This document shows, in pieces, positions 1 to 19,661 of a stretch of DNA of 19,661 nucleotides. This stretch comes from a virus (taxonomy: Duplodnaviria; Heunggongvirae; Uroviricota; Caudoviricetes). The position numbers were made by a program, and so were the translations under genes. The notes beneath the pieces are model-generated. The model saw nothing but the letters and a program-made list of their open reading frames with translations. It ran no database searches and was not told the origin of the DNA. The DNA lies in IMG/VR virus record IMGVR_UViG_3300014631_000001, positions 1 through 19,661 of that record, one strand, 5' to 3'. How positions within the stretch are numbered: position 1 is the first letter of the stretch; every line of letters starts with the position of its first letter.

Positions 1-282
1 GCTCACTATGCCGTCTCACCGAGAGAACTACTTCAGCTGCCGTTGGCCATGTTTTGGATGTTGAGTCGAAACATTGATCGTCTCCGGGCTGAAGAGGATG
101 TCCGTAGTTTCCAGGTGGCAAGAGTCGCCCAGGCAGATGCTGATAGCGGCAAGGCGTTCATGGAGGGTTTGCAACACCGTATTGGAAGACCAGTCGTTAC
201 CGATAAAGTCTACGATCCAAGTTATGCGAAAGCAGACCCCGACGCCAAAGAGCAACTGATGAAAATTTTTGGCGCAGGATGA
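1..282 (+). CDS. Tail assembly chaperone, C-terminal (lambda GT/T-like) portion; 5'-truncated by the window edge
   Basis: The frame of ORF 43..282 is open from base 1 (AHYAVSPRELLQLPLAMFWMLSRNIDRLRAEED...). It sits immediately before the tape measure gene, the canonical position of the chaperone T domain. Confidence 0.6.
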   Translation, partial: AHYAVSPRELLQLPLAMFWMLSRNIDRLRAEEDVRSFQVARVAQADADSGKAFMEGLQHRIGRPVVTDKVYDPSYAKADPDAKEQLMKIFGAG

Positions 283-289
283 CAAGGGA

Positions 290-4870: not shown

Positions 4871-4880
4871 GGAGTGGGTA

Positions 4881-5213
4881 ATGTCAAGGACGACATTTAC
4901 CTGGTTCCCGTTGTTTGATTCCGAGAAGGAGGTGAAGCCGGAAGTAACCCGGCTCGCCTTCAACGAAGGGTATGAGCAACGTGTAACCAGTGGTTTGAAC
5001 TGGCGCAAATTCAGCTGGGATCTGCAATTCCAGGGGACACGAGCTGAAATGCAGGAGATCGACGACTTCCTGTATGCGCGCGGAGGGGTGGAGTCATTTA
5101 ACTGGACTTCACCAAACGGGCAGAGGGTTGTAGTGGTGAGCGATAGCCATAAGGTCAAAAACTCACGAGGGTACGCGACCTTGACCACAACTTTCCGCCA
5201 GGTATTTGAGTAA
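4881..5213 (+). CDS. gpM: Minor tail protein, lambda gpM-like (distal tail)
   Basis: 110 aa with FNEGYEQRVTSGLN and IDDFLYARGGVESFNWTSP motifs; AAGGAG SD; lies directly after the tape measure gene. Confidence 0.88.
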   Translation: MSRTTFTWFPLFDSEKEVKPEVTRLAFNEGYEQRVTSGLNWRKFSWDLQFQGTRAEMQEIDDFLYARGGVESFNWTSPNGQRVVVVSDSHKVKNSRGYATLTTTFRQVFE

Positions 5214-5261
5214 CAAAAGCCCCAAAGGATGGGGGCTAATCTTCAAGGATGAAGACAGAAA

Positions 5262-5960
5262 ATGGAATCTATTGCATCGAGTATTCAGTCACTCCAACCG
5301 AGTGCGCTGATTGAAGTGTTTGAGCTGGATATGTCGGTAACTACCAGCGGTGGAAAGCTGTATTTTCATGCAGGCACCAATGAACTTTCTGAACCAATTA
5401 TTTGGCAGGGGGTAACCTATAAACCATGGCCAATTGCGGCATCTGGTTTCGATAAAAGTGGCCAGGGCAAGTTACCGCGACCAAAACTGCAGGTGAGTAA
5501 CCTCGATGGCATTATTTCGGCTGAAGTGCAGTCGAATGAGGATTTGATCGGCTGTAAGCTGATTCGTCGAGTCACGCTCGCTCGTTTTTTAGATGCTGCC
5601 AACTTTACTGAGGGCAACTCTACAGCTGACCCGAACCAGCATTTTGCCGATGAGATGTGGTACATCGACCAGAAGACTTTTGAGGATCGCGAGATTGTTG
5701 AGTTTGAGCTTGCCTCAGCCTTCGATCTAATGGGGGTTATGCTACCCAACCGCCAGATCGTCAAAAACTCATGCCAGTGGCGGTATCGAAGCGCTGAGTG
5801 CGGTTATACCGGTCCCTACTTTGACAAAAATGATGCGCCAACCAAACTGGCCAGCGCCGACTATTGCACTAAGCGATTGTCATCGTGCCGTGCTCGGATT
5901 AATTACTTTGCCAATGGCATCATTGCATTTGGCGGGTTCCCCGGAGCAAACCGCGCATGA
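5262..5960 (+). CDS. gpL: Minor tail tip protein, lambda gpL-like
   Basis: IEVFELD start, YFHAGTN, RRVTLARFLDAANF, and a C-terminal four-Cys cluster (CQWRYRSAECGY...CTKRLSSC) ending FGGFPG. Confidence 0.92.
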   Translation: MESIASSIQSLQPSALIEVFELDMSVTTSGGKLYFHAGTNELSEPIIWQGVTYKPWPIAASGFDKSGQGKLPRPKLQVSNLDGIISAEVQSNEDLIGCKLIRRVTLARFLDAANFTEGNSTADPNQHFADEMWYIDQKTFEDREIVEFELASAFDLMGVMLPNRQIVKNSCQWRYRSAECGYTGPYFDKNDAPTKLASADYCTKRLSSCRARINYFANGIIAFGGFPGANRA

Positions 5961-6733
5961 TGAAGAATGAAATGATGAATGCAAAGTTGCTTGGCGCTAT
6001 GCGCCTTGCCGCTTTGCAGGAATATCCAAATGAGGCTTGCGGCCTGCTTGTTAATACAAGAGCGAACAAGTATGAGTTAATTGTTTGCCGAAACGTCGCT
6101 GATGATCCTGAAAACTATTTTGTCATGCACGCCGAAGACCAAATTGCAGCTGAGAGAGCTGGCGAGGTGGTTGGTGTTTGGCATTCGCATACTGACGAGG
6201 ATAATCAGGCGTCTGAGGCAGATATGTCTGGTTGTGAAGCATCAGAGTTACCGTGGTTTATTATAAACATCAGCAAAAACTACAATCCTGAAATTGATGC
6301 AGAGTATCGTTTTAGTGATGTAAATGTGATCAAGCCTTCTGGATTTGAAATGCCTTATGAGGGAAGACCGTACGCATTTGGGGTATTTGATTGCTGGCTG
6401 CTGTGCCGAGATTATTTAAAGCGTGAGAAAAATGTGGCTATTGGCGTCTGCCCTGAGTTGCATATCCCATCGTGGTGGGAAAGGGGGATTGATATTTTAA
6501 ACGACAACTTCCAGTCGCAGGATCTTATAAGATTGCCACCGGGAACCCCACGTCAAAATGGCGACATTTTCTTCATGCAGTTAGCATCGCAAGTTCCTGA
6601 TCACTGTGCAGTTTACATTGGCGATGGTATGATATTGCATCATCAAATGGATAGATTGAGCTGCAAAGCAATTTATGGCGGGATGTACGAAAAGCACACT
6701 ACGCACCATTTGAGACACAAGGATTTAATGTGA
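5957..6733 (+). CDS. gpK: Tail tip assembly protein, lambda gpK-like (JAB/MPN plus NlpC/P60 domains)
   Basis: EYPNEACGLL...HSH...SEAD JAMM motif, then FGVFDCWLLCRDY and HCAVY...ILHH NlpC/P60 catalytic residues; ATGA overlap with L. Confidence 0.92.
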   Translation: MMKNEMMNAKLLGAMRLAALQEYPNEACGLLVNTRANKYELIVCRNVADDPENYFVMHAEDQIAAERAGEVVGVWHSHTDEDNQASEADMSGCEASELPWFIINISKNYNPEIDAEYRFSDVNVIKPSGFEMPYEGRPYAFGVFDCWLLCRDYLKREKNVAIGVCPELHIPSWWERGIDILNDNFQSQDLIRLPPGTPRQNGDIFFMQLASQVPDHCAVYIGDGMILHHQMDRLSCKAIYGGMYEKHTTHHLRHKDLM

Positions 6734-6742
6734 GGGAAGACA

Positions 6743-7372
6743 ATGAGTGAAATGGCTATGGATAAGCCTGAACTTGTCACTGTCGAATTAGGTGGAGTTT
6801 TAGGTAAGAATTTTGGCAAGGTCCATCATGTTGCTGCAAATACTGTCCGGCGCGCAGTAAGTATTATTGACTGTAATCGCCCTGGTCTCGTAACCTGGAT
6901 GAAGATGAACGCTAAGAAATATCAGAAGTATCATATTTATGTCGAGCGTCATGATGGAGCAGTCTACGATATGAGTGAAGCCGAGTTCCAAATGGAAAAT
7001 AACGGAAGCATGAAATCGATCAGAATCACACCGATTTATCGTGGCTCTGGCTCAAAGGTTGTCGGTGCAGTTCAGGTTGTTGTTGGTGTTACTTTGATGG
7101 TAGTGGCAGTGTTTGCTTCGTCAGTAACCGGTGGTGCTTCATTGGCAATGTTTTCTGCTGGTTTTGCTATGGCCTTCGGTGGTGTCGCAGCGCTCTTGTC
7201 CAAGCAGCCATCAAATAAAATGACGACCGTTGATAATAAAGACTCGTACTACTTTGATGGGCCGCAAAATACAGTATCTCAAGGCAACCCCGTACAGCTC
7301 ATTTACGGTAAAGAGATTTTAGTCGGCTCCCAGATTGTCAGCGTCAAGATGTCAGTTGAGCAGATGCTTTAG
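6743..7372 (+). CDS. gpI: Tail assembly protein, lambda gpI-like
   Basis: VELGGVLGKNFGK N-terminus, hydrophobic Gly/Ala middle segment, SYYFDGPQNTVSQGNPVQLIYG...VGSQIVS C-terminus. Confidence 0.9.
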   Translation: MSEMAMDKPELVTVELGGVLGKNFGKVHHVAANTVRRAVSIIDCNRPGLVTWMKMNAKKYQKYHIYVERHDGAVYDMSEAEFQMENNGSMKSIRITPIYRGSGSKVVGAVQVVVGVTLMVVAVFASSVTGGASLAMFSAGFAMAFGGVAALLSKQPSNKMTTVDNKDSYYFDGPQNTVSQGNPVQLIYGKEILVGSQIVSVKMSVEQML

Positions 7373-7525
7373 TACATAACCACTACGCCAGGCTTAGACG
7401 TTTGCGGTGGTGGCTAAGGCAAATTAAGTAAAACAGTTGGGCATTGACAGGAGGTTGATGCCCAACCAAGCGCCGGCAGGATGCCAGCGATCACACATAA
7501 ATTGCACCAAAAAGGGAGATTTTCG

Positions 7526-10500
7526 GTGGCAACTGTTAAAGAAAGACGCCTGCTCGCCGGTTCTGGCGGTGGCAGCAAGGGCGGCGGTTCCGCGCACACG
7601 CCTGTAGAAGACAAAGATAATGTTCAGTCGCGATCACTCGCCTCAATCCTTGACCTTCTTGGTGAGGGAAAGATTGGTGGATTGATCAATGGCGGACAGT
7701 CAATTTTCCTCGACAATGTCCCAATTCTAAACCCGGACGGCACCAGTAACTTCAATGGGGTTAACTGGTGGTTTCGTGATGGAACCCAGAATCAGGCAGT
7801 GATCGAGGGCTTTGATGCGGTTGAAACACCGCATGATGTTGGCGTCCAAATCAAGCTGTCTACCCCTCGTACCATTCAGATCGACAACGATGATTCTGAC
7901 CAGGTGCGTGTCATTATGATGTTCCCGAAACTGACCAAAACGGATCAGAAGTCGGGCGACACCCACGGTACGACCGTTCAATTCCAGTTTGAGATCGCAT
8001 ACGGCACTACCTCGTTTAAGCCAATTAAACCGCAAGGTTATGCGTCACATGTCGTTACACTGAGCAAAAAGTCCAGCGGCAAACACTATCGTGAATATCT
8101 TTTTGATCTGCCCAAGCCAGGCTCAAACTATCGCATTCGCGTAAGCCGCGTGACCGCTGATAGCACCACTGACTATATCCAGGATCAGACTTGGCTCAGT
8201 CAGTACGGTGAAATCGTCAGTACAAAACTTAACTACCCGAACAGTGCGCTTGTTGGTCTTAAAATCGACTCGCAGCAATTTGGTAGTTCTGTGCCGGCGC
8301 GTTCCTACCTAGTCTCGGGTATGGAAATCCGCGTTCCGTCCAACTATGACCCGGTGCTTGGTACGTATTCGGGAGATTGGGATGGAACCTTCCGTTTAAT
8401 GGTATCTGACAATCCTGCCTGGATTTTGTACGACCTGCTCACCAGTAAGCGCTATGGCTTGGGGGAGTACGTCACTGAATCAATGATCAACATCGGCCAG
8501 CTTTACCAGATTGGGCGCTATTGCGATGAGCTGATCAATGATGGATTCGGGGGCAAGGAGAAGCGCTTCGCAATTAACACCGTAATTAACTCACGCGGTG
8601 AGGCGTACAAGGTTCTTCAGGACATCGTATCGACTTTCCGGGGGATGATTTTCTGGGCTGGTGGCATGGTTAACATCATGCAGGATAGCCCAAGTAGCCC
8701 GGTCATGCAGTTCAGTGCCGCGAACATCATTGGCAAAGTATCCTACAAAGGCTCTTCTCGCAAAGACCGCGCCACTGTAGCTCTCATCACTTACAACGAC
8801 AAAGATGACCTGTACAAGCAGAACATCGAGTACGTTGAAGATGAAGAGGGTATTAAGCGTTTTGGTGTACGTAAAACTGAATCAGTAGCTTTCGGTTGTA
8901 CCAGCCGTGGCCAGGCACACCGTGTTGGGCTTTGGACGCTTTACAGCAACCGCATGGAAACAGATCTGATCACCTTCACCTCTGGTATGGACGCATCGTT
9001 ACTCATGCCTGGCGAACTGGTGAAACTGCAAGATAAGTTCCGATCAGGGAAACGAAATTCCGGGCGCCTGGTGAACTACACCAAAAACAGCATCACACTC
9101 GACGCCTCTGTAAAACTGACTAAAGCCGGGAACACCGTCTCTTTCCTGAGTGCTAAAGGGAAGATGATTGATCGCGACCTTATTGAAGGCGCTGGCGAAT
9201 ACACTGTTGTCACCTTCAAGAAGGCATTAACTGAAGAAGAATACCCAGCGATTATGGGGATCTGGTCAGTCATTGAGCCTAATCTGGAGCCAATGCTGCT
9301 GCGTGTGCTGGCCGTTAACCAGAATGAGGAGAAGGGCGCCTTTGACATCGTGGGTGTGCAGCACAACCCTACGAAGTTTAACGCTATCGATGAAGGGGCG
9401 ATTCTCGTACCGTCGAAGACAACAATTCTAGACCCGACTTTCTCAACTCCAGAAAATCTGCAGGTGACGGAAGGGACATTCGTTTCCTCCCCGGGCAACC
9501 TTTCGGTAAAACTGATGGTGAGTTGGGAGGGCAAGTCGCCTTCGTATGTGCTGCGTTACCGTCGTTCCGATGTTGTTGAAGATTGGGTGACAACAGAGGT
9601 TAAGACTGAGCAGTACGATATTTTAAACGCTGCTGAGAATGGCATGTATGACATCGAACTGTACTCGATTTCAGCCACAGGCAGACGTTCTAGCGTCATT
9701 TCCATGGTGTACACCACTCTTGGAACGATGATGCCACCAGATGCGCCCACGCTTCTCACTGCGATCGGGGATTATCGCGTCAACGTTCTGGCATGGCAGC
9801 TGCCGGGCACAATTGACATCGACAAAATCAACATTTATGCCTCTCGCACCAATGATCTCACCACCGCGTCTCTGATTGCAGCGGTTACATCGACAACATT
9901 CACCCATAGCGGGCTGGGTGACGATGAAACGTGGTTCTATTGGGTGCGTGCTGTCAACAAGCGCGGCATGGTAAGTCAGCCAAACTCTTCTCTGGGAACC
10001 GAAGCCACAACGAAAGATGTGCTCTCTTTTTTAAAAAACAAAATCACTACTTCCGAATTAGGGAAGGAGCTTCTTGCTGATATTGATGGGAAAGCAACAG
10101 CTATCGATGTGGCAGCGCTTGAAGTGAAGGTGGATAAAGGGGTTGATAGCCTTTCTCAATCAGTCAGTGAGATGAAAGGATCGCTTACGGGTATGGAGCA
10201 AGCCCAGACAGACCTTCAGACCAGCGTGGGAGAGACACAACAAAAGGTAGAGGGCGCCCTGGCGGAGATGGATGAAGCCGCCGCCAAAGTCTTAAATCTG
10301 CAAGAGACGGTGAATGAGCAAAGCGAAGCAGTGGCAACCACTGTTGAGGCGGCTCAGGCTGCTCTGGACAACAGCAAGACGCTTATTGCTGAAGAGCAAA
10401 AAGCTCGTGTGGAAGCAGACTCTGCCCTGGGGCAAAAAATCGACACTATGGAATCTGTGGTCGATAGCGGTAAAGCCAGTATCAACGAGATGCAGAAAAC

Positions 10501-11872
10501 TGTCTCTGACGTAGAGAACTCTGCTTCTCAGTGGACCTCTAGCCTTGAAGCTAACGCGATAGCTAATATTGATCTAGCGCTTCGCCAGGAAGAAAACAGA
10601 CATCAGCAGTCTGCCACTAATGCCCAAATCAATTCTGATCAGCAAGCTATTGCGAATGACGTTTCGGCTGTTTCGAAGCGAGTCGAAGAGATGAAGGCTG
10701 AGATTGGCGAAGATATTGCGACCAAGCTGACTGAGGAAAGAGAGACTCGCGCGAGCGCAGATGAAGCGGTGTCCCGCCGAATTATTCAACTTCAGGCCGA
10801 CATTAATGATGACATTAAAGCTTCATTAACTACTGAGCAACTGGCTCGGGCTGACGGTGATAGTGCGCTATCAAGGCAAATCACCTCTTTGGAAGCACAG
10901 GTAAATAACGACATTAGGGCTGCCCTAGATACGGAAGCAAAAACCAGAGCAGACAGTGATGGCGCGCTGTCCTCACAAATTACTGCTTTGAGTGCCCAAG
11001 TAAACGATCAGGTTAAAGCACAGCTGTCTACAGAGATGCAGGCGCGTGCAGACGCTGATTCGGCGCTGGGTAGCCGAATCGACTCTCTTAAGGCCCAAAC
11101 CTCTTCTGACATCAGCGCTGCGGTAGCTTCAGAAACTCAGGCTCGAGCCAGTGCCGACTCCGCGCTTGGTAGCCGCATCGATAACTTGAAGGCCCAAACA
11201 GCCACCGACATCAATGCGGCCATAGCTACAGAAACAATAGCCAGAGCAAATGCTGATTCAGCGATGGCAGGTAATATTTCTGGGTTACAGGCTCAAGCAA
11301 ACAATTTAGCTGCTTCGATTAATAGTGAGGCCACGGCCAGAGCAAATGCTGATGCGGCTCTCAGCCAGAGAGTTGATACGGTTAACGCTAAGACCGATTC
11401 GGTTTCGGCTACCGTGCAGCAAACTACACAGGCTGTGGCTGATGTTAATTATAAAGTGTCTGCTTCATGGACATTGAAAATGGAAACATCGGCTTATAAC
11501 GGAGTGAAGTATGCCGCGGGCATTGCTTTAGGTATTGATGGCTCCGGTGTGTCGCAATTTTTAATTCGTGCGGATCGATTTGGGCTGGTTAACTCTGTTG
11601 ATGGCAATGTGACAACGCCTTTCGTAATTGAAAATAGCGTTGCTTATATGAACGGTGCCTATATTAAGAACGGCACTATCGATAACGCCAAGATCGGAGA
11701 TCTACAGTCCACCAACTATGTTACAGCTAATGCTGGCTGGCGTATCTCAAAAAACGGAACCTTTGAGATGAATGGCAACAGTGGTGGTGCAGGGCGGATG
11801 GTTATAAATAATAACCGTATAGAGGTGTATGACGAGAACAACGTCTTAAGGGTGAGGATGGGGCTGATGTAA
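7526..11872 (+). CDS. gpJ: Central tail fibre / tail tip protein, lambda gpJ-like
   Basis: GSGGGSKGGG N-terminus, LNYPNSALVGLKIDSQQF, SDNPAWILYDLLTSKRYGLG, FN3-like repeats, long coiled coil, and a C-terminal YAAGIALGID...FLIRADRF...IKNGTIDNAKIG region. The GTG at 7526 has a GGGAG SD 7 nt upstream and is preferred to the ATG at 7481. Confidence 0.92.
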   Translation: MATVKERRLLAGSGGGSKGGGSAHTPVEDKDNVQSRSLASILDLLGEGKIGGLINGGQSIFLDNVPILNPDGTSNFNGVNWWFRDGTQNQAVIEGFDAVETPHDVGVQIKLSTPRTIQIDNDDSDQVRVIMMFPKLTKTDQKSGDTHGTTVQFQFEIAYGTTSFKPIKPQGYASHVVTLSKKSSGKHYREYLFDLPKPGSNYRIRVSRVTADSTTDYIQDQTWLSQYGEIVSTKLNYPNSALVGLKIDSQQFGSSVPARSYLVSGMEIRVPSNYDPVLGTYSGDWDGTFRLMVSDNPAWILYDLLTSKRYGLGEYVTESMINIGQLYQIGRYCDELINDGFGGKEKRFAINTVINSRGEAYKVLQDIVSTFRGMIFWAGGMVNIMQDSPSSPVMQFSAANIIGKVSYKGSSRKDRATVALITYNDKDDLYKQNIEYVEDEEGIKRFGVRKTESVAFGCTSRGQAHRVGLWTLYSNRMETDLITFTSGMDASLLMPGELVKLQDKFRSGKRNSGRLVNYTKNSITLDASVKLTKAGNTVSFLSAKGKMIDRDLIEGAGEYTVVTFKKALTEEEYPAIMGIWSVIEPNLEPMLLRVLAVNQNEEKGAFDIVGVQHNPTKFNAIDEGAILVPSKTTILDPTFSTPENLQVTEGTFVSSPGNLSVKLMVSWEGKSPSYVLRYRRSDVVEDWVTTEVKTEQYDILNAAENGMYDIELYSISATGRRSSVISMVYTTLGTMMPPDAPTLLTAIGDYRVNVLAWQLPGTIDIDKINIYASRTNDLTTASLIAAVTSTTFTHSGLGDDETWFYWVRAVNKRGMVSQPNSSLGTEATTKDVLSFLKNKITTSELGKELLADIDGKATAIDVAALEVKVDKGVDSLSQSVSEMKGSLTGMEQAQTDLQTSVGETQQKVEGALAEMDEAAAKVLNLQETVNEQSEAVATTVEAAQAALDNSKTLIAEEQKARVEADSALGQKIDTMESVVDSGKASINEMQKTVSDVENSASQWTSSLEANAIANIDLALRQEENRHQQSATNAQINSDQQAIANDVSAVSKRVEEMKAEIGEDIATKLTEERETRASADEAVSRRIIQLQADINDDIKASLTTEQLARADGDSALSRQITSLEAQVNNDIRAALDTEAKTRADSDGALSSQITALSAQVNDQVKAQLSTEMQARADADSALGSRIDSLKAQTSSDISAAVASETQARASADSALGSRIDNLKAQTATDINAAIATETIARANADSAMAGNISGLQAQANNLAASINSEATARANADAALSQRVDTVNAKTDSVSATVQQTTQAVADVNYKVSASWTLKMETSAYNGVKYAAGIALGIDGSGVSQFLIRADRFGLVNSVDGNVTTPFVIENSVAYMNGAYIKNGTIDNAKIGDLQSTNYVTANAGWRISKNGTFEMNGNSGGAGRMVINNNRIEVYDENNVLRVRMGLM
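10736..11400 (+). repeat. About seven tandem 99-bp (33-aa) coiled-coil repeats within J
   Basis: Units start at 10736, 10835, 10934, 11033, 11132, 11231 and 11327 (last interval 96 bp). Consensus ExxARAxADSALxxxIxxLxAQxxxDIxAAxxx. The exact 18-mer GCCAGAGCAAATGCTGAT occurs at 11240 and 11336. Confidence 0.88.
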
Positions 11873-11883
11873 CGAAAATTAGT

Positions 11884-11954
11884 CCCTCTTTGCAATTAAA
11901 GGGGGGCATAGTTAAAAACCCCTTTTAAATCGTACAGTTCGTATTGATGAGGGG
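11884..11954. other. Stem-loop cluster between J and the tail fibre gene
   Basis: CCCTCTTT (11884-91) pairs with AAAGGGGG (11898-905). AAAGGGG can alternatively pair with CCCCTTT (11919-25). CCCCT (11919-23) can also pair with AGGGG (11950-54). Confidence 0.55.
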
Positions 11955-11961
11955 CAAAAAA

Positions 11962-12000
11962 TAGGTAATCATCTACCTACTTGAAAGTTTGTCTTTCATT
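11962..12000 (+). promoter_or_regulatory. Palindromic site TAGGTA-N6-TACCTA plus TTTGTCTTTCATT motif upstream of the tail fibre gene
   Basis: Perfect 6-6-6 inverted repeat at 11962-11979 and a 13-mer at 11988-12000; both recur upstream of the lysis cassette. Confidence 0.6.
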
Positions 12001-12041
12001 GTTTGCTGAAGCAAGGATAGCTGAAGCGTTAAGGAGAAAAT

Positions 12042-15000
12042 ATGTGGTACAGGGAAGGTACTCTCACCTTGGTCAAAGATTCCCGCGCCGTCACTGGCGA
12101 AGGGACTAATTGGTCGAAAACGGAAAATGGCGTATTGCCGGGAATGATCTTGCTGGGGCCGGACGGCTCAGTACATGAGATCAAATCTGTCCAATCAAAC
12201 ACAGCGCTGACTCTGGTAGAAGCCTATACCGGCGAAACAGCTGTTGATGCGCCTTGTCGTATAATCACGACCTATGAAGGCGATATTAGCCAGTTCAGTG
12301 CGCGATTTTCAGCGATGCTACAACGCATGACCACCGATTCCGGGGTAATTCGAGCGTGGTTAACTTCTGGAAAAACAGCTAATTTAATCACTGAAACCGG
12401 CGAACAGATTACTATTAAATCGCTTTTGCAGATCGTAGACGAACATGACAAAAGCATGTCATGGTTTGAGAGTAATCAAGCCGCAATTGATGCCGCTGGA
12501 GACAAGGCTAAGGCCGCTTCTCAGAGTGCTGCGGAGGCCGCGGTCTACCAAAGCGCCACCAAAACCTCCGAAGCCAATGCCTTAGCCTCTGCAAATAAGG
12601 CGGAAGCCTCTGCAGGCGCAGCTGCCGTCTCGGAGGTAAATGCCGGCACATCTGCCTCAAATGCAAAAGCTTCGGAGGCAAGCTCTGAAGCGTCGGAGGC
12701 AAGTGCTGCTAGATCAGCAAAAGCTGCGTCCCTTTCTGAAGCTAATGCACTTAACTCGATGAATGCTGCGGCAAATTCTGCAGCCAATGCAGAAAATTCA
12801 GAAGCAAACGCACATTCATCTGAGGTTGTTGCTGTTAAGGCCAAAGAGGACGCTGTAAGCTCTGCTTCTGCCGCAAGTAGATCGGCGTCCGAGGCCGAAG
12901 TTTCAGAAGCCAATGCGCAGATGTCAGAGCAGAGTGCTAAAGCAGCGACTGAGTCAGCTGCAGCCTCTCAATTAGCCGCAGCAGGCTCTGAAGCACAGGC
13001 AATAGCTTCAGAGCGTAACGCTTCTGCTTCTGCAGCTGCGGCCAAAAGCTCTAAAACCAATGCAGGAAGATCTGAGGCTGCAGCGGAACAGGCTGCCAAT
13101 AATGCCCTTACTTCTGAAAAAGCTGCATCCCGAGCAGAAACCGCAGCCGCAACCTCCGAGGTTAACTCAAAATCCTCCGAGTCGAACGCTGTAACGGCGG
13201 CGGTAAATGCAGCCGCTTCTGAAGCATCAGCAGTTCATGCCAAAGTTGACGCGGAAAATGCAGCATCGGTGGCGACTGCCAAAGCAGAATCTGCTTCAGC
13301 CTCAGAGGTTAGTGCTGCTGACTCTGCTTCACGCGCTGAGGCCGCCGCTTCTAAATCCTTAAATGGTGGGCAGCCTTACTCCGAAATACTGACATCAATC
13401 TCTGCGCTAGGTGATAGCACCGCCAGTGATCAGTTCATGTACCTTTCTGACAATAACCAGATGTCTCTTGCCCCAATTGCGGTATTTATGCGTGATCTGC
13501 TGTCTAAAGCAAATGCAGACGCTCTCTTGGACGAGATCCAGGGCACAGACAAGACCTTTTTGTTTGCTGACTCAGCTAAAGCAGTTGCGTTACCTGGAGA
13601 TCTTGTGGCCCCAGGCAGTGCTGTCTTTAACAAAGGGGTTACTGCGGGATATACAGGTGGCCGGATGTTCGCCCAGCAGTACGGCACTGATGCTGCTTTT
13701 TATCAAGACATCACCACTACCGGGACAAGCGAATTTCACCCACTTGTGAAGCAGAGAGTCACCGTAGGCGATAAATCATGGTCTGGTTCGTTCGGATGGT
13801 TGATCAACTCTATGGAGTGGCATCTGCTATTGATTGACAAGACCGCGCAGGAGCAGCGAAATTTTGTCTTCAGAACGACTGGCGAATTTACAGCTCCTGG
13901 TCGAATTCTGCCTGGTGATTATGCCAACTTCGATGTTCGCTATCTTGGATTAAATGCCAATGCTGTCAGCGCGACCAAACTGCTTTCGGCACGAAAAATT
14001 GCTGGGAAGGCATTTGATGGCACATCCGATGTTGTGTTGACCGCAGATGATGTTGGTGCCGTAACTTCGGGTCTTACAGCAACCGTTATTGATGATACTG
14101 GCGTACCATGGAATGGGAAAACCGGTGTTTATAACGGTCAACGTTCAGGTGATTCTGTTTGTATCGCGCATTTCAATACCAATACCGGAAGTTGCCCATC
14201 ACTTCAGCTCAAGGCCCACTATAAGAATGGCGGTCTCTTCTACCGTTCATCTCGTGACCAGTTCGGTTTTGAGCAAGGATTCGAACAGATTTACACCACC
14301 AGCTTTAAACCCTCACCAGCAGATATAGGGGCATTGCCAAATAATGGTGGCGTTATGGCTGGGCAAATGGGTGTTGTGTCGTATGACGATGAAGCGCTTT
14401 ACTTGCAGCGCAGATCGGCTAACCAGGCGCTTTATCTGCGAGGGAGAGCAGAGAATGGTGCTGCGCGCTGGTATGTCGGAAACGGAAGTTCTGGCGCTGA
14501 TGATGTAACATTAGGTAACTATATTCATAATACGACACTAACCCTTAATGAAAGTGGAGTGTTTTCAAACCGTGGATATACGGCTAATGGATATTTTACC
14601 GCCCAAGGTTCTGGTACGACAACCCTGATAATGGGCACTGGCGGTGGGGACGCGTTTCTAAAAAACTCCACTTCAGGCATGTATCTTCAGCTTAAAAACA
14701 ACGGCCTCCTGTCCTACAGCGACCAACCGATTTACCATTCCGGCAACAAGCCAACGCCTGCAGAGCTTGGGGCTTACCCAACTTCGGGTGGCGAATTATA
14801 TGGGGAGGTTATAACAACTAGTCTGAACGGCTACCGCATTAAAGCTGGAAACTATGGAATGTTTATCCGAAATGACGGAGCAAACACCTATTTCCTTTTA
14901 ACCAATGCTGGGGATCAAAATGGTGGCTGGAATAACCTCCGACCCTTCTATTTCGAAAATAGTAGTGGAGTAGCGTATCTCGGGCAGGGTGTTAACGTAA

Positions 15001-15671
15001 GCGGTTTTGCGAACTTTAATGGTTTAGCGACTCTTAATCAGGGCTTAAATGTTTATGGCAGCGCCAACTTTAATGGTGCTATGAATATTGCCGGGAGCAT
15101 AACTATACCCACTAATCCAGGCGCATGGATCAATATGCGAACTGGCTCCGCTCTACAGGGTACCGTTCCGTTGGCAACAGGCAATGCGGCTCCTATAGTT
15201 CGTCAGGAACACCCTGACAGGGATTTCGTATTGGGAGGCTTGGGTAACTCGCAATTCGGCATTTATGGTTTCGAGAGATCCCGAACAGAAAATGGCTACG
15301 ACTACTGCGCATATCTTGACAATGGCGGCAATTGGACAGCTTCTGGGTATGGTAGCTTTAACGATGTTTACATCCGTTCTGACCGTCGTAATAAGCGCAA
15401 CATTAAAAAGATTGATGGCGCGCTGGATAAGCTAGAAAAAATCGACGGCGTCCTGTATGAGCTGCAGGGTATCAATGGCTACTCCCAATCCGCTGGTCTA
15501 GTGGCTCAACAATTTCAGGACGTGCAGCCGGAGCTGGTTACATCCGATATCGATCACATTAGTAATGAAGAGCGTCTGCGTCTGAATTATAACGGCGTTA
15601 TCGGGATGCTGGTTGAAGCGGTTAAAGAGCTGCGCGCTGAAGTTCGAGAAATTAAAGAGGCAATCGCATGA
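12042..15671 (+). CDS. Side (long) tail fibre with C-terminal intramolecular chaperone (Peptidase S74-like)
   Basis: MWYREGT N-terminus, Ala/Ser-rich stf-like coiled coil (about 12480-13350), fibre modules (ARKIAGKAFDGTSDV, PWNGKTGVY, KPxPAxxGA knots, WNNLRPF), and FNDVYIRSDRRNKRNI...LNYNGVIGMLVEAVKEL chaperone; AAGGAG SD. Confidence 0.9.
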   Translation: MWYREGTLTLVKDSRAVTGEGTNWSKTENGVLPGMILLGPDGSVHEIKSVQSNTALTLVEAYTGETAVDAPCRIITTYEGDISQFSARFSAMLQRMTTDSGVIRAWLTSGKTANLITETGEQITIKSLLQIVDEHDKSMSWFESNQAAIDAAGDKAKAASQSAAEAAVYQSATKTSEANALASANKAEASAGAAAVSEVNAGTSASNAKASEASSEASEASAARSAKAASLSEANALNSMNAAANSAANAENSEANAHSSEVVAVKAKEDAVSSASAASRSASEAEVSEANAQMSEQSAKAATESAAASQLAAAGSEAQAIASERNASASAAAAKSSKTNAGRSEAAAEQAANNALTSEKAASRAETAAATSEVNSKSSESNAVTAAVNAAASEASAVHAKVDAENAASVATAKAESASASEVSAADSASRAEAAASKSLNGGQPYSEILTSISALGDSTASDQFMYLSDNNQMSLAPIAVFMRDLLSKANADALLDEIQGTDKTFLFADSAKAVALPGDLVAPGSAVFNKGVTAGYTGGRMFAQQYGTDAAFYQDITTTGTSEFHPLVKQRVTVGDKSWSGSFGWLINSMEWHLLLIDKTAQEQRNFVFRTTGEFTAPGRILPGDYANFDVRYLGLNANAVSATKLLSARKIAGKAFDGTSDVVLTADDVGAVTSGLTATVIDDTGVPWNGKTGVYNGQRSGDSVCIAHFNTNTGSCPSLQLKAHYKNGGLFYRSSRDQFGFEQGFEQIYTTSFKPSPADIGALPNNGGVMAGQMGVVSYDDEALYLQRRSANQALYLRGRAENGAARWYVGNGSSGADDVTLGNYIHNTTLTLNESGVFSNRGYTANGYFTAQGSGTTTLIMGTGGGDAFLKNSTSGMYLQLKNNGLLSYSDQPIYHSGNKPTPAELGAYPTSGGELYGEVITTSLNGYRIKAGNYGMFIRNDGANTYFLLTNAGDQNGGWNNLRPFYFENSSGVAYLGQGVNVSGFANFNGLATLNQGLNVYGSANFNGAMNIAGSITIPTNPGAWINMRTGSALQGTVPLATGNAAPIVRQEHPDRDFVLGGLGNSQFGIYGFERSRTENGYDYCAYLDNGGNWTASGYGSFNDVYIRSDRRNKRNIKKIDGALDKLEKIDGVLYELQGINGYSQSAGLVAQQFQDVQPELVTSDIDHISNEERLRLNYNGVIGMLVEAVKELRAEVREIKEAIA

Positions 15672-16144
15672 CAGTCGCTGCTGGTTGGGTAGGTTCAAGC
15701 ACAGTTGGCGAAACTGGACAGCGTTGGATGTCGGCGGCCGGGCCGGCACTTCAACTAGGCGTACCATTTTGGATGAGTACGCTCCCTGGTAGGAGCACTT
15801 CAATCTCATTCAGTGTTACAGGTGCCTATGGTGCAGATGCCACTGGTTTATATTATGGCTACAACTCAGTATTAGGTATTGGGTATGTTTCAGGTAACTA
15901 TTACGGAAGACAGATTGTTGGTTTTTTTACCAAAGTTCCTACTGTTAATGATCAGCAGACAGTTACTTGCTTGATGCTCGCAGGCGCAATGTCTGGATCG
16001 GTAAGTTTGATAGTGTTTGGCAGTCGGTACCAGTTTGATTTCAATCCGACATATGGAGGGTACATTAATGCTGACGTTAATCTTGCAACAAATATGGCAA
16101 CTACTTTTAATCAAGGGACGCCAACATTGACTATAACCACTTAA
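15668..16144 (+). CDS. Tail fibre tip adhesin with T-even gp38-like N-terminal attachment domain
   Basis: The N-terminus GWVGSSTVGETGQRWMSAA...PFWMS..GRS matches the three-Trp gp38 attachment motif; ATGA overlap with the fibre gene. Confidence 0.75.
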   Translation: MTVAAGWVGSSTVGETGQRWMSAAGPALQLGVPFWMSTLPGRSTSISFSVTGAYGADATGLYYGYNSVLGIGYVSGNYYGRQIVGFFTKVPTVNDQQTVTCLMLAGAMSGSVSLIVFGSRYQFDFNPTYGGYINADVNLATNMATTFNQGTPTLTITT

Positions 16145-16155
16145 TAATCCTTTCT

Positions 16156-16176
16156 AAGCGCCTACGGGCGCTTTTT
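16156..16176 (+). terminator. Rho-independent terminator after the tail fibre/adhesin genes
   Basis: AAGCGCC-TACG-GGCGCTT stem (UNCG loop) followed by a T run. Confidence 0.8.
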
Positions 16177-16177
16177 A

Positions 16178-16221
16178 GTAGGTAGCTAGCTACTTACATT
16201 TGTCTTGCATTTTGTTAAGAT
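16178..16221 (+). promoter_or_regulatory. Putative lysis-cassette promoter: palindrome GTAGGTAGCTAGCTACTTAC upstream of an extended -10
   Basis: Near-perfect inverted repeat at 16178-16197, TTTGTCTTGCATT at 16199-16211, and TGtTAAGAT at 16213-16221. Confidence 0.6.
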
Positions 16222-16259
16222 CCCTGAATACCGAAATTTGACTTTTCACGGAGGAAAAA

Positions 16260-16586
16260 ATGTCAAATGAGATGGGAGGCGTGACGCCAGATCAGGTCGA
16301 GCGAATTGCCCAAATTGTCGCCAGAGAGGTCATGGGGAGTCTGCGAAAGGATCTCCGTGATGATATTGGTGCAGAAGTAAAGGCCCAACTAGGAGCCTAT
16401 TTTGGGGACATGACAGCCGCTCAGCACAGCATCCAGCATTCGAATCTGGAAAAGCTACTGACCCGGTTGGACAGCATCTCAAGTGGCTTCTTTGGTGGCG
16501 TCATTTCCAAAATCACATCCATCTTGACCGCTGCTTTGCTTCTAGGACTGGCGGCATATGGCGTTAAAAATGGTTTCGGCAACTAA
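16260..16586 (+). CDS. Putative holin/lysis regulator (single C-terminal transmembrane helix)
   Basis: 108 aa with one hydrophobic segment (GGVISKITSILTAALLLGLAAYGV); GGAGG SD; first gene before the endolysin. Confidence 0.55.
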   Translation: MSNEMGGVTPDQVERIAQIVAREVMGSLRKDLRDDIGAEVKAQLGAYFGDMTAAQHSIQHSNLEKLLTRLDSISSGFFGGVISKITSILTAALLLGLAAYGVKNGFGN

Positions 16587-16600
16587 GAGGAAGGCTAAGG

Positions 16601-17293
16601 ATGGCTAATCCAAGAGGCATTAGAAACAACAACCCCGGCAATCTTGACCGCGGTTCACCGTGGCAAGGGCTGATAGACAACCCGGCAGAACCTCGCTTCT
16701 GCACCTTTAAAGACGCAACCTGGGGCATTCGTGCGCTGGCGGTTACGCTCATCACCTACCATGACAAACGTAAAGCGCGTGACGGCTCACCGATCGACAC
16801 TGTCCGTGAGGTCATTGAGCGCTGGGCACCGCCGCATGAGAACGACACTGAGGCATATGTTAACGCAGTGGCAAAAGCGGTGGGTGTCACTCCAGAAATG
16901 GTGGTGGATCTGCATGACTACGCGACGTTACGCCCCCTGGTGGAAGCGATCATTCGCCATGAGAACGGCAAAGGCCCATTAAAGACGGCAAACAGCTGGT
17001 ACTCAGTGGAAGCCATCGACGAGGGTCTGCGTCGTGCCGGTGTGGTGCGAGTGGTTAAAGCTGTAAAAGCAGTTCCAGTCACTAAGGAGTCTGCTGGCGC
17101 AACGATTACTGCCGGTATTGGTGTCGCGCAGCTGGTGGACGTAGCGCCGCAGATCACTCATGCAATGGATAAGGCTCAGGACAATATTTCTAGTGGCGAT
17201 ACCATCCGCATCGTGTTCGGTGTTGCCACGGTAGCAATTGCACTTTTCATTGCCTGGTCTCAGGTTCGCAAACACCAGAAGGGGATCGCGTAA
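16601..17293 (+). CDS. Putative endolysin (RGIRNNNPGN lysozyme-like family) with C-terminal hydrophobic segments
   Basis: RGIRNNNPGNL...F.....GIRA....L..Y...T....I.RWAP..ENDT.AY...V pattern; position between the holin-like and spanin genes. Confidence 0.8.
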   Translation: MANPRGIRNNNPGNLDRGSPWQGLIDNPAEPRFCTFKDATWGIRALAVTLITYHDKRKARDGSPIDTVREVIERWAPPHENDTEAYVNAVAKAVGVTPEMVVDLHDYATLRPLVEAIIRHENGKGPLKTANSWYSVEAIDEGLRRAGVVRVVKAVKAVPVTKESAGATITAGIGVAQLVDVAPQITHAMDKAQDNISSGDTIRIVFGVATVAIALFIAWSQVRKHQKGIA

Positions 17294-17544
17294 TGCTTCT
17301 TGGCCTTTACATTAAGGCCAAGCAGTACCTGTTGACGGCTGCGGCCGTCATCATGGTGCTTGCTGGTGCCTATTACCTCGGTGGCCGGGCTGTTCGCCGG
17401 TCAATGGAAATTAAAGCAGAGCGTGAAGACAACAAACGCCTGCAACACACACTGGATGTGAAGAATGACGTTATCAATGCAGTCCGACGCTCGGATGATG
17501 CTACCGTTGATGCTCAGCTTGCTGCTGATTGGATGCGTGATTAA
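17293..17544 (+). CDS. i-spanin (Rz-like)
   Basis: N-terminal TM helix (YLLTAAAVIMVLAGAYYLG) followed by a charged helical periplasmic part; TAATG coupling to the endolysin. Confidence 0.75.
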   Translation: MLLGLYIKAKQYLLTAAAVIMVLAGAYYLGGRAVRRSMEIKAEREDNKRLQHTLDVKNDVINAVRRSDDATVDAQLAADWMRD

Positions 17545-17695
17545 GCCACCAGCCCAAGGGGTGTTATTCTGCGATGCAGCCAACCCCATTTACGTTAGCC
17601 ACAGTGATCAGCTAACTCAGGAAACGAAACGTGAGATCCTTTCCCACAATGAACAGGGTGCCACGTTGTGCCATTGGGAGAAAAAGCCCCGCTAG
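17495..17695 (+). CDS. o-spanin lipoprotein (Rz1-like), overlapping the i-spanin 3' end
   Basis: From the ATG at 17495: MMLPLMLSLLLIG-C signal peptide with lipobox, then CDAANPIY..SDQLTQETKREILSHNE...LC. Confidence 0.78.
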   Translation: MMLPLMLSLLLIGCVIKPPAQGVLFCDAANPIYVSHSDQLTQETKREILSHNEQGATLCHWEKKPR

Positions 17696-17710
17696 CGTTA
17701 TGCTTTTGAA

Positions 17711-17761
17711 GGCGTCTCTCTGGGTATGGAGACGCCCGTTTCCCTTACGGGCTGTAAGGGA
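17711..17761. terminator. Twin GC-rich hairpins after the spanins (possible terminator or processing site)
   Basis: GGCGTCTC/GAGACGCC (17711-17736) and TCCCTTAC/GTAAGGGA (17741-17761), both perfect 8-bp stems; no clear U-tract. Confidence 0.45.
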
Positions 17762-17789
17762 CTATTCAATGTTTGGTTGAGTTTTGTGG

Positions 17790-17818
17790 TTGCAAAATAG
17801 TTCGCTATTGCGTAGATT
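17790..17818 (+). promoter_or_regulatory. Putative sigma70 promoter of the two-gene cassette, with a palindrome in the spacer
   Basis: TTGCAA (17790-95)-N17-TAGATT (17813-18); AATAG-TTCG-CTATT inverted repeat at 17796-17809. Confidence 0.55.
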
Positions 17819-17940
17819 TGTTAGACAGTTGACGAATGCGTCAACCCAATTTCAATATCTACGAAGCATTCTCGTAGCTTCTAAATCCCCAGATTGGGGG
17901 TCGCCGAACACGCTGCATAGCACTCGGCTAAGGTGGAAAC

Positions 17941-18336
17941 ATGCACGACGTACTGAACGAAAAACGTTCTATTCAGACAATTCGTGATCATACCAGTATT
18001 ATTGCCACGCACGCCTTTCAGCAACATTTGCTTCAGGTGCGTACACTGGACAATGAAGGCATGGTTGCGCCTGAAGACTTTCACTTCATCGTCACCTTCA
18101 AGGATGACGTGGACAATGCTGATGCTACGGTTAAGCCGTTGGCAGAAGCCGTCCTGCTCGGTGATCGCGTCCGTTTCATTGTTAAGCCTGCTAAACAGTA
18201 CCCTGAGATGGCCAAATCAATGGCTGATCTCGTTGAGGTTATTGAACATTCTATTCGTCGTTTCTTTGATACTAATGGTAGAATCATGAGCACTAGAAAA
18301 GCTAATGGTTCTGCTGAGAAATGGCTCCTACACTAA
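17941..18336 (+). CDS. Hypothetical protein (131 aa), first gene of a two-gene cassette
   Basis: AAGGTGG SD, soluble protein-like composition, and a stop that overlaps the next gene by 16 nt; no family recognised. Confidence 0.75.
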   Translation: MHDVLNEKRSIQTIRDHTSIIATHAFQQHLLQVRTLDNEGMVAPEDFHFIVTFKDDVDNADATVKPLAEAVLLGDRVRFIVKPAKQYPEMAKSMADLVEVIEHSIRRFFDTNGRIMSTRKANGSAEKWLLH

Positions 18337-19064
18337 TAGAATCCTACAAAAAAGATTTGAGCGAGTGGCCTCACAAAGGGGACACTCGCTTTGTTCGTTT
18401 CGGCTTCATCCTTGCCTCTAGGTCACTTTTCAAAATTTCAGAGCACGAAATCATCGAACCAGATGATGATGTAGTTCGCTACGTTCTCATTGAGCGTGTA
18501 GGTGCGAACATTCCCGATGTCGAACTGGGCAACATGATTTTGGACTACGAAGATGACGGGCTGAATGAGCAGAACATTATTCAGGAACTTCTCCGGTCCG
18601 GCGTCGTTGATGAGACTAAGAACGTCACGGCTGGGCGGGTTGGGCTTCGTAACTATAGCTTCGTTGACGATGGCCAAGACATAGATTGTTTTCAAGTCGC
18701 TGGGGCTTTTATCCAGCCCACAAATCATCGTAAAGGCATCATGAGCAGGACTTATATTTTCATGCTGAATTGGTATGAACATTTGGTTTGTGACGATATG
18801 CAGACGATACCTGGTGCGCGCATTTGGGCTGGCCCGATGATTCGAGCTGGTGAAGTACGAATCTACAATGAGAATGGCGGTTCATTTGAAGATGTGCTCG
18901 GTGAGAAAGGCACCGGTAAGCATACCGGCTTCCTACCCTGGAACAAAGGTCGCTTGTTTGATACCTCACCTTGGAACCCTAATCAGCTCCAAACTACAGT
19001 GCAAAAATTTATCGTGCTGATTATATCCCGAGGAACCTGCGTCAGAATTGGCTTTATCCCCTAA
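18321..19064 (+). CDS. GNAT-like (acyltransferase fold) protein, 247 aa
   Basis: VAGAFIQPTNHRKGIMSRTY resembles GNAT motif A (beta4-alpha3 acetyl-CoA loop) and LVCDDMQTIPGARIW resembles motif B. The ORF itself is well supported; the fold call is pattern-based. Confidence 0.6.
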   Translation: MAPTLIESYKKDLSEWPHKGDTRFVRFGFILASRSLFKISEHEIIEPDDDVVRYVLIERVGANIPDVELGNMILDYEDDGLNEQNIIQELLRSGVVDETKNVTAGRVGLRNYSFVDDGQDIDCFQVAGAFIQPTNHRKGIMSRTYIFMLNWYEHLVCDDMQTIPGARIWAGPMIRAGEVRIYNENGGSFEDVLGEKGTGKHTGFLPWNKGRLFDTSPWNPNQLQTTVQKFIVLIISRGTCVRIGFIP

Positions 19065-19080
19065 GCCTTGAACATTTCCT

Positions 19081-19103
19081 AACCCGCTTCGGCGGGTTTT
19101 TTT
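19081..19103 (+). terminator. Rho-independent terminator closing the two-gene cassette
   Basis: AACCCGC-TTCG-GCGGGTT stem-loop followed by a T run. Confidence 0.88.
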
Positions 19104-19139
19104 ATTCCTAAAATTCAGCTCATTGCTTACAAACTGGTC

Positions 19140-19198
19140 TTTACACCGTGGCCGTCCCGCATTAGTCTAATAGGCACATAAGAAAACAACTTGTTTTC
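19140..19198 (+). promoter_or_regulatory. Putative parA promoter and operator
   Basis: TTTACA (19140-45)-N17-TAGTCT (19163-68); perfect inverted repeat GAAAACAA-C-TTGTTTTC at 19182-19198. Confidence 0.6.
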
Positions 19199-19233
19199 AC
19201 GTGATTATTATTTCGCACAACAAGGAAATAACA

Positions 19234-19661
19234 ATGGCTAAGATCATTGTGATTGGCGGCACCAAAGGTGGCCCCGGAAAATCTACGGTTGCGCAGCAGG
19301 TAGCCGGTGCGCTGGTTCTTAAAAAGCAGAAGAAATGTCACCTGACCGACATCGATGGGCAGATGACGACCGCAGGCTGGGCTGAAGAACGTCGCGAAAA
19401 CGAAGACTTGGCACTTATTCCATTTGAGTTCGTGGATCATGACGTGGTTAAGCACATCAACGCGGTCAGCCAGCGCCACGACTTCGTGGTTATTGATGCA
19501 GGTGGCTTCGACTCCGAAATACAGCGTCAGGCTATGCAGATGGCCGACATCATCCTTCTTCCGTTCCGCCCGAAGCGCCGTGACATTAAATCACTGCGTA
19601 ATCTCGATCCGGTTTTGGATAACGTGCGTAATACCAACCACAAGGTTCGAATCATTGGGGT
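19234..19661 (+). CDS. parA: ParA-family partition ATPase (short type without N-terminal HTH); 3'-truncated by the window edge
   Basis: Read directly from the sequence (absent from the ORF track because it has no stop in the window): MAKIIVIGGTKGGPGKSTVAQQ (deviant Walker A), LTDIDGQ (A'), DFVVIDAGG (Walker B), ADIILLPFRP; AAGGA SD. Confidence 0.93.
   Translation, partial: MAKIIVIGGTKGGPGKSTVAQQVAGALVLKKQKKCHLTDIDGQMTTAGWAEERRENEDLALIPFEFVDHDVVKHINAVSQRHDFVVIDAGGFDSEIQRQAMQMADIILLPFRPKRRDIKSLRNLDPVLDNVRNTNHKVRIIG

Follow-up and report, generated by a model that had tools for sequence, protein, structure and literature searches.

A mobile two-gene cassette of SSU5-like phage-plasmids with a divergent GNAT-fold protein and a predicted binding partner: a candidate toxin-antitoxin or abortive-infection variant

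What is the role of a small, self-contained pair of genes that lies between the lysis genes and the partition gene parA of a phage-plasmid? This question is raised by the DNA stretch analyzed here (the window, 19,661 nucleotides, positions 1 to 19,661 of the IMG/VR record IMGVR_UViG_3300014631_000001), which makes up the initial 19.7 kb of a virus record that is 110,229 bp long and bears direct terminal repeats. The cassette consists of two genes on the + strand, gene 1 (17941–18336; 131 amino acids, phrog_2594) and gene 2 (18321–19064; 247 amino acids, phrog_3307). A first-pass annotation, made from the letters and open reading frames (ORFs) of the window, had proposed a new toxin-antitoxin or anti-phage system, with a GNAT-like second protein. 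The analysis described below points to gene 2 as a divergent GNAT-fold protein, the proposed acyltransferase effector, and to gene 1 as its proposed binding partner and inhibitor. The view that the cassette is a toxin-antitoxin or abortive-infection variant, in which a GNAT-fold effector is controlled by an inhibitor that is not of the ribbon-helix-helix (RHH) type, is given an even chance of being correct.

The gene 2 protein had no match in Pfam even at an E-value of 1, none in PADLOC-DB 2.0 and none in a sequence search of the PDB, and distant members of its family were likewise without a PADLOC-DB match. PHROGs assigns it to phrog_3307, a family of unknown function. This family is small: a search of 1.84 billion proteins recovered 46 representatives at E <= 0.001. 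A sub-threshold match to Pfam Acetyltransf (E 0.007) is present in 3 of 57 family members, and a distant hidden Markov model (HMM) match of gene 2 overlaps a Pfam Acetyltransf_1 region.

The AlphaFold2 model, calculated from a 57-sequence alignment, reached a predicted local distance difference test score (pLDDT) of 92.8 and a predicted template modeling score (pTM) of 0.90. A search of the whole PDB (48,161 chains), which was independent of Foldseek, returned exclusively GNAT-fold proteins among the best 50 rows, with Z values of 8.1–6.1, 113–150 aligned residues and a root-mean-square deviation (rmsd) of 3.0–5.9, covering gene 2 residues ~22–245. Here, the regulatory domains of ICL2/Rv1916, NatD, AAC(2'), AtaT (Z 7.4), TacT3 (Z 6.7) and Mom (Z 6.3) are found. 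Foldseek against the PDB gave no strong match, nearly all of the weak rows being GNATs, and a Foldseek search of BFVD, a structure search of the ESM Atlas and a language-model search returned mainly GNAT-type proteins. With the alignments of the whole-PDB search spanning residues ~22–245 and the other searches pointing to the same superfamily, the whole gene 2 protein is, as judged from its model, a divergent GNAT fold. The first-pass annotation had listed the lack of a GNAT fold among the findings that would refute its proposal; the model shows this fold.

The first-pass annotation had noticed segments resembling GNAT motifs A and B at 18696–18755 and 18783–18827, placed behind an acidic N-terminal extension of about 100 amino acids. 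The two segments agree well with the model, in which they correspond to residues 126–145 (strand beta4, the following loop and helix alpha3) and residues 155–169 (beta5-alpha4), respectively. The extension has to be revised. Residues 1–100 are indeed acidic (pI 4.5), yet the GNAT alignments start already at about residue 22, so that these residues belong to the fold.

Within the gene 2 family the residues P3, K11, R106, Q125, G128, Y145, D158, Q161, G165, W169, Y182 and W207 are conserved. The motif Q125-x-x-G128 is located on beta4, Y145 on alpha3, D158-x-x-Q161-T/S after beta5 and W169 on alpha4, and these elements represent the catalytic-cleft region of other GNATs. The N-terminus (18321–18335 in the window) reads M-A/S-P, where P3 is invariant in 57 sequences and is kept even in gene pairs that do not overlap. 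The pyrophosphate loop, Q/R-x-x-G-x-G/A, appears in the window as H136-R-K-G139-I-M and in close alleles as R-Q-R-G-L-C or Q-Q-Q-G-L-S; a weak profile alignment puts it on the sequence QGQGFG of a classical toxin. Due to this weakened loop, catalysis and the use of acyl-CoA by gene 2 are at most plausible from the model.

Two observations on relatives of gene 2 may be added. Stand-alone proteins of ~200–216 amino acids, distantly related to the gene 2 core (E 1e-9 to 1e-6), are encoded on chromosomes of Enterobacterales (L034, L039, L040, L047, L048), and 2 of 8 scanned stand-alone relatives carry a sub-threshold Acetyltransf_1 match. The ORF lists contain no obvious upstream partner for them, although the gene 1 profile was not run there. 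Furthermore, in the database protein P0079 (310 amino acids) a Rep3_N replication-initiator domain is fused to a gene 2 family fragment (residues 176–281); this is probably a chimeric or mis-called gene.

The second line of evidence is the association of both genes. In each of the 28 loci that were collected first, gene 2 is immediately preceded by a gene 1 homologue, and the overlap is the same. This pairing persists for gene 2 relatives of only ~20–27% identity, which are found on an integrase island, in a filamentous prophage, on Acinetobacter plasmids and on metagenome contigs. In the distant pairs the genes are 15–30 nucleotides (nt) apart and do not overlap, and the gene 1 partner on the metagenome contig is only weakly recognizable (hhalign probability 75%). 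Overall, among the full-length loci examined, a single one has no gene of the gene 1 family ahead of gene 2, and gene 2 was never seen without a small ORF upstream. The first-pass annotation had suggested such a neighborhood survey and had counted a lack of co-occurrence elsewhere as a reason to drop its proposal; apart from the single locus L036, which is taken up below, gene 2 was found together with a gene of the gene 1 family.

One of the distant pairs is followed directly by a gene for a 305-amino-acid SIR2-like protein (PADLOC SIR2 models, E 8e-7; L050:5038–5955, also L051 and L052). This pair resides in a filamentous prophage with Zot and Rep_trans.

Gene 1 is found alone as well. The E. 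coli IncY plasmid pY-Ec2 harbors an orphan homologue (L056:3501–3851, HMM E 2e-28), in which the RSIQTIRD motif is kept. It adjoins hot, humD and phd-doc, and no gene 2 is present within 3.5 kb, a neighborhood that was read in L056 only. The P1-like phages D6 and RCS47 match gene 1 by tblastn, and differences between the counts suggest that an orphan gene 1 is present in roughly 90 P1-like phage-plasmids of the D6/RCS47 type, of which one plasmid was inspected. Such an orphan gene may serve as a counter-measure, or it may be a remnant. The lambdoid phages PhiR12 carry an intact gene 1 together with a frameshifted gene 2.

How might both proteins act together? Co-folding of gene 1 and gene 2, an approach already recommended in the first-pass annotation, predicted a confident complex with an interaction prediction score from aligned errors (ipSAE) of 0.86, compared to 0.01 for the best control. 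In the calibration of this score, 58 of 80 solved complexes attained this mark, as did 2 of 110 mismatched pairs. Three co-folding runs share at least 93% of the contacts, and the pLDDT of the partner is at least 81. No similar complex has been solved, and therefore the score is unlikely to stem from a memorized structure.

On gene 2, the predicted interface comprises residues 133–139, 142–146 and 167–176, which lie on the beta4-alpha3 loop, alpha3 and alpha4, as well as residues 66–74 and C-terminal loops. Gene 1 contributes the RSIQTIRD motif and the edge of its sheet. In GNATs, the residues matching the beta4-alpha3 loop, alpha3 and alpha4 form the acyl-CoA site, and in AtaT, KacT and TacT this site is likewise blocked by the antitoxin. 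According to the predicted complex, gene 1 would cover the cofactor site of gene 2.

Gene 1 itself is less easily assigned. It belongs to phrog_2594, again a PHROGs family of unknown function, and sequence searches of Pfam and the PDB yielded nothing usable for it. PADLOC-DB, whose search had also been proposed beforehand, returned a weak partial match of 31 residues to PDC-S39 (E 0.003) for gene 1, besides the lack of any match for gene 2. The model displays an antiparallel beta-sheet followed by one long helix, with a pLDDT of 70 for the protein alone and 81–83 in the complex. The most conserved feature is the N-terminal RSIQTIRD-T motif, within which RSIQTIRD is invariant. In the structural search the best rows are N-terminal halves of GNATs (HAT1, Z 7.9, 100 residues, rmsd 3.9), and GNATs make up ~30 of the best 50 rows, Z values of this size being reached also by models without a true match.

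Several other assignments of gene 1 were considered and rejected. An origin by duplication from the N-terminal half of gene 2 found no support in a profile-profile comparison (E 0.58). A relationship to Tad1, suggested by the Thoeris anti-defence sponge CmTad1, which headed the Foldseek PDB rows for gene 1, was dismissed at a Foldseek E-value of 0.09, a template modeling (TM) score of 0.3 and an rmsd of 11, and Tad1 is absent from the best 50 rows of the whole-PDB search. To the DUF1778 protein of locus L030, gene 1 has no profile similarity.

The anatomy of the cassette is that of an operon. The two reading frames overlap by 16 nt on the + strand. A programmed frameshift fusing gene 1 and gene 2 was rejected: inspection by eye found no slippery heptamer in the overlap, and in distant members the genes are gapped instead. 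Upstream, a promoter was read from the sequence at 17790–17818 (+ strand), with a −35 box TTGCAA (17790–17795), a spacer of 17 nt and a −10 box TAGATT (17813–17818). A generic consensus promoter scan called nothing upstream of gene 1, since only 8 of 12 consensus positions are matched. This promoter aligns with the element TTGAnn-N17-TA(G/A/T)(A/G)TT, which accompanies the cassette in all contexts, including the P2-like phage, the lambdoid prophage and the Pantoea chromosome. In comparison to most alleles, an insertion of 13 nt (17783–17795) displaces the ancestral −35 box TTGAGT in the window and brings TTGCAA at the correct 17-nt spacing.

Downstream of gene 2, a terminator scan recovered an intrinsic terminator at 19081–19105 (+ strand), with the hairpin at 19081–19098 and a T-run. 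The same scan found a terminator-like hairpin after Rz1 (17711–17736, + strand), which closes the lysis operon. The first-pass annotation had credited the cassette with its own promoter, overlapping coupled ORFs and a strong terminator, and had seen it wedged between the lysis genes and parA; all of these features were recovered, the promoter as part of a travelling element, though not called by the generic scan, and the position with Rz/Rz1 upstream and parA downstream as in the Salmonella phage SSU5.

Between the −10 box and the start codon of gene 1 a leader of ~115 nt is present, and all 16 distinct versions of it fold into the same four hairpins, H1–H4, which lie on the + strand of the window. 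H1 (17828–17845) is formed by GTTGACG and CGTCAAC, has at least six different stem sequences among the 16 distinct leaders and may represent either a 5' RNA stem or an inverted repeat resembling an operator. The 3' arm of H2 (17859–17877) lies within the stretch CTCGTAGCCTCTAAA, which hardly varies between alleles and reads CTCGTAGCTTCTAAA in the window, with one T for C; the 5' arm shifts its register between alleles while the pairing is kept. H3 (17885–17901; ATCCCCA and TGGGGGT) has at least six stem variants, with compensatory changes at 4 of 5 consensus pairs as revealed by RNAalifold. In H4 (17903–17928) the outer stem GCCG/CGGC is invariant and the inner stem is variable. Thus, in H1, H3 and the inner part of H4 the stem sequences vary among alleles with preservation of the pairing.

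The Shine-Dalgarno sequence of gene 1, AAGGTGG (17930–17936, + strand), lies inside the invariant stretch CGGCTAAGGTGGA. In the consensus fold the stretches CTCGTAGCCTCTAAA and CGGCTAAGGTGGA pair with each other and the Shine-Dalgarno sequence pairs with the upstream CCUCU, in both cases without covariation. Rfam contains no family matching the leader, the sole row being a chance Trp-leader match on the terminator. The folding stability of the whole leader compared to shuffled sequences is unremarkable (z −1.4), and the case for a leader structure therefore rests on the changed stems and not on energy. On this comparison of alleles, the leader is regarded as a real conserved RNA architecture. 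In a lambdoid copy, a partial duplication of ~70 nt of the leader is located between H4 and the Shine-Dalgarno sequence (L007:5540–5620).

Which element carries the cassette, and how does the cassette move? In the window, the order of the tail, tail-fibre, holin, endolysin, Rz/Rz1 and parA genes is collinear with SSU5 (78% identity for the endolysin and 66% for ParA) and also with hundreds of non-mobilizable plasmids of ~110 kb from Klebsiella, Escherichia, Enterobacter and Salmonella (776 PLSDB records). Due to this collinearity with the phage as well as with the plasmids, the carrier is an SSU5-like phage-plasmid. The cassette neighbors, holin, endolysin, Rz and Rz1 upstream and parA downstream, are arranged as in SSU5. 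Cassettes of this family are present in about one third of the 776 PLSDB records matching the region, and a relative is found on ~110-kb plasmids of Acinetobacter baumannii.

Two neighboring genes of the window show features of their own. The endolysin homologue (16601–17293) has a hydrophobic C-terminal segment and is labelled 'membrane protein' in many plasmid records. The tail-fibre protein of 1209 amino acids (12042–15671) contains a low-complexity stretch of ~250 residues, rich in Ala, Ser and Glu, near its N-terminal third.

In comparison with the related loci L005 and L029, the protein identity is 98–99% for endolysin, Rz and ParA, whereas it drops to 57% for gene 1 and 49% for gene 2. 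On the nucleotide level, an identity of 97% ends at ~17677, and the swapped block starts at ~17678, so that the hairpin after Rz1 falls just inside its upstream edge. For L026 and L028 the identity is high again from 19081, and for L029 from ~18927, within the 3' end of gene 2. Between flanks that are nearly identical, the cassette is exchanged as one block.

Outside of SSU5-like elements, the cassette occupies different positions. In a lambdoid element it follows the lysis genes, in PhiR12 it lies beside int, and on a Pantoea chromosome it is inserted between metabolic genes with a scrap of Rz1 still attached. The copy of a P2-like phage (L008) is located between gpA and ogr/gpQ, and the gpA-gpQ region of P2 has been described as the hotspot in which antiviral cargo such as old and tin resides (Rousset et al., 2022; PMC9122126). 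Within the SSU5-like plasmids, the Rz1-parA slot itself is filled in alternative ways: in ~17 of 60 evenly sampled records from sister plasmids it holds a classical toxin-antitoxin pair of DUF1778 and GNAT proteins on the opposite strand, and in further sister plasmids other small cargo or nothing at all. A role related to partition was rejected, since the cassette is also present in P2-like, lambdoid and filamentous phages and on chromosomes and is missing from many SSU5-like plasmids with an intact parA.

The closest known counterparts are the type II systems of GNAT toxins and DUF1778 antitoxins, TacAT, AtaRT, KacAT and ItaRT. The cassette resembles them in its coupled genes, the small one first and followed by a larger one of GNAT fold, in the partner being predicted on the acyl-CoA side of the enzyme, and in its carriage by mobile elements. 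Furthermore, a classical pair of this type fills the identical Rz1-parA slot in the sister plasmids. The first-pass annotation had pointed out that neither the size of the second protein nor the upstream protein fits the pattern of AtaT, TacT and KacT, and this is confirmed. The partner comprises 131 amino acids, is without an RHH/DUF1778 domain and has an unrelated fold. The GNAT protein comprises 247 instead of 160–180 amino acids and is missed by every Pfam GNAT model.

Compared to the classical toxin of locus L030, gene 2 reaches an hhalign E-value of 0.12, which is not significant, and in structure it is no closer to AtaT and TacT (Z 7.4 and 6.7) than it is to other GNATs. Specific to the cassette in comparison to the classical toxins are the M-A/S-P N-terminus, the motifs Q-x-x-G and D-x-x-Q-T/S, W169 and the conserved four-hairpin leader. 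Judged by sequence, the cassette is not a member of the TacAT/AtaRT/KacAT family, because its partner is not an RHH/DUF1778 protein and its enzyme is not detectably homologous to those toxins. Despite this non-membership, it may work like them. With the anti-phage cargo of the P2 gpA-gpQ region, such as old and tin, it shares the hotspot in one allele (L008), its self-contained build and the exchange between mobile elements; unlike catalogued anti-phage cargo, the cassette proteins have no significant match to a PADLOC-DB model.

Taken together, the anatomy, the asymmetry of the pairing, the predicted clamp on the cofactor site, the block swapping and the neighboring cargo fit best to a toxin-antitoxin or abortive-infection module. 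Such a module would work as follows. The travelling promoter would drive the structured leader of ~115 nt and then two translationally coupled genes. Gene 1 would be translated first and bind gene 2, a very divergent GNAT-fold acyltransferase acting as the effector, over the beta4-alpha3 loop, helix alpha3 and helix alpha4. Since the bound surface holds acyl-CoA in GNATs, the enzyme would stay inactive in the complex. Once gene 1 is displaced or depleted, and depletion could occur when the phage-plasmid is lost or another phage attacks, free gene 2 would acylate an essential target and growth would stop. By analogy with TacT, AtaT and KacT, this target might be aminoacyl-tRNA. The benefit for the carrier would presumably be plasmid addiction, phage defence or both.

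A number of observations weigh against this explanation. Anti-defence or other cargo would fit the location in accessory slots equally well. The pyrophosphate loop, which is partly kept in the window, is not conserved across the wider gene 2 family, and among the closest structural matches is a domain of ICL2 that senses acetyl-CoA and is non-catalytic. Distant gene 2 relatives are encoded on chromosomes as stand-alone proteins without an obvious gene 1, an argument that toxicity need not come with the fold, and in locus L036 a gene 2 relative is preceded by an ORF of 108 amino acids that is not recognizable as a gene 1 homologue. In gene 2, the residues predicted to make contact vary more than the rest of the protein, which may reflect surface exposure only. 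Unlike autoregulating type II antitoxins, gene 1 has no DNA-binding domain recognizable by Pfam and structure searches. Finally, literature searches on SSU5 genes, on the PHROG families and on GNATs in P2 hotspots or phage-plasmids turned up no publication on either gene. In a study of an SSU5-like Klebsiella plasmid, curing of the plasmid improved phage burst and plasmid uptake, an effect that was attributed to a restriction system (PMC8969562).

The accessory slots and the stand-alone relatives would also suit a non-toxic modifying enzyme of two subunits, in which gene 1 is an obligate targeting or activating subunit and the complex acylates a host or phage protein or a small molecule. This could benefit the element through anti-defence, superinfection exclusion or the detoxification of an antibiotic or microcin. 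The GNAT-type anti-CRISPR AcrVA5, for example, acetylates Cas12a. The GNAT fold and the tight predicted heterocomplex are in line with such an enzyme, and so is the gene 1 model, which is most like the N-terminal half of a GNAT, as in enzymes with a degenerate second GNAT domain; its Z value of 7.9, however, falls within the range of models without a true match. An interface over the acyl-CoA region suits inhibition better than activation, the orphan gene 1 of D6 and RCS47 is hard to explain for a mere subunit, and the same slot is alternatively filled by a bona fide toxin-antitoxin pair. An enzyme of this kind is considered unlikely. The degenerate pyrophosphate loop of the family might instead indicate that gene 2 is a non-catalytic sensor of acyl-CoA or of a metabolite, which together with gene 1 and the leader regulates the element rather than acting as an effector, for instance by linking the metabolic state of the host to maintenance or induction. 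The best structural matches, the acetyl-CoA-binding regulatory domain of M. tuberculosis ICL2 and Rv1916 (Z 8.1 and 8.0), as well as the elaborate regulation suggested by a conserved leader of several hairpins, fit to a sensor. Nevertheless, these Z values are tied with those of many catalytic GNATs, and the invariant polar residues Q125, D158, Q161 and Y145 are located on elements lining the catalytic cleft of other GNATs. As portable cargo that is shared by P2-like, lambdoid and filamentous phages and chromosomes and is missing from many SSU5-like plasmids, the cassette cannot be a core regulator of its carrier, and a sensor appears improbable.

In the com-mom operon of phage Mu, a small upstream overlapping gene controls the translation of a GNAT-fold enzyme that modifies DNA. 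A module of this kind, with gene 1 controlling the translation of a DNA- or RNA-modifying enzyme and thereby evading restriction, would share with the cassette the small gene overlapping a GNAT-fold gene of ~240 amino acids in a temperate phage, as well as the RNA structure in the control region, here a leader ahead of the genes. Mom is indeed among the structural matches of gene 2 (8bv8, Z 6.3, 133 residues, rmsd 4.9), but it ranks 37th, not above generic GNATs and thus not specially close. Gene 1 contains no cysteine and hence no zinc finger of the Com type, it is predicted to bind the enzyme itself and not RNA alone, and the structured RNA precedes gene 1 and not gene 2. A Mom-like module for nucleic-acid modification is therefore regarded as very improbable.

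Within the explanation as a toxin-antitoxin or abortive-infection module, a more far-reaching version can be formulated. Here, the cassette would be a new abortive-infection or addiction system with an unrecognized clade of GNAT toxins and an antitoxin fold that is possibly derived from half a GNAT; the leader would set or sense the ratio of antitoxin to toxin, and the orphan gene 1 of D6 and RCS47 would serve in counter-defence as an antitoxin decoy against resident SSU5-like elements, so that two families of phage-plasmids would be engaged in an arms race. As a whole, this version is rather unlikely and is put forward tentatively.

SSU5-like phage-plasmids are common among clinical Klebsiella, E. 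coli, Enterobacter and Salmonella. Their cassette provides, with its conserved leader, a candidate for a new cis-regulatory RNA. If gene 2 is a toxin, a second and structurally distinct way of controlling GNAT toxins would exist, in which the partner is not an RHH protein, and a family of defence or addiction systems that is invisible to Pfam and PADLOC would be added to those known. In this case, the orphan partner in P1-like phage-plasmids would represent a testable conflict between families of phage-plasmids.

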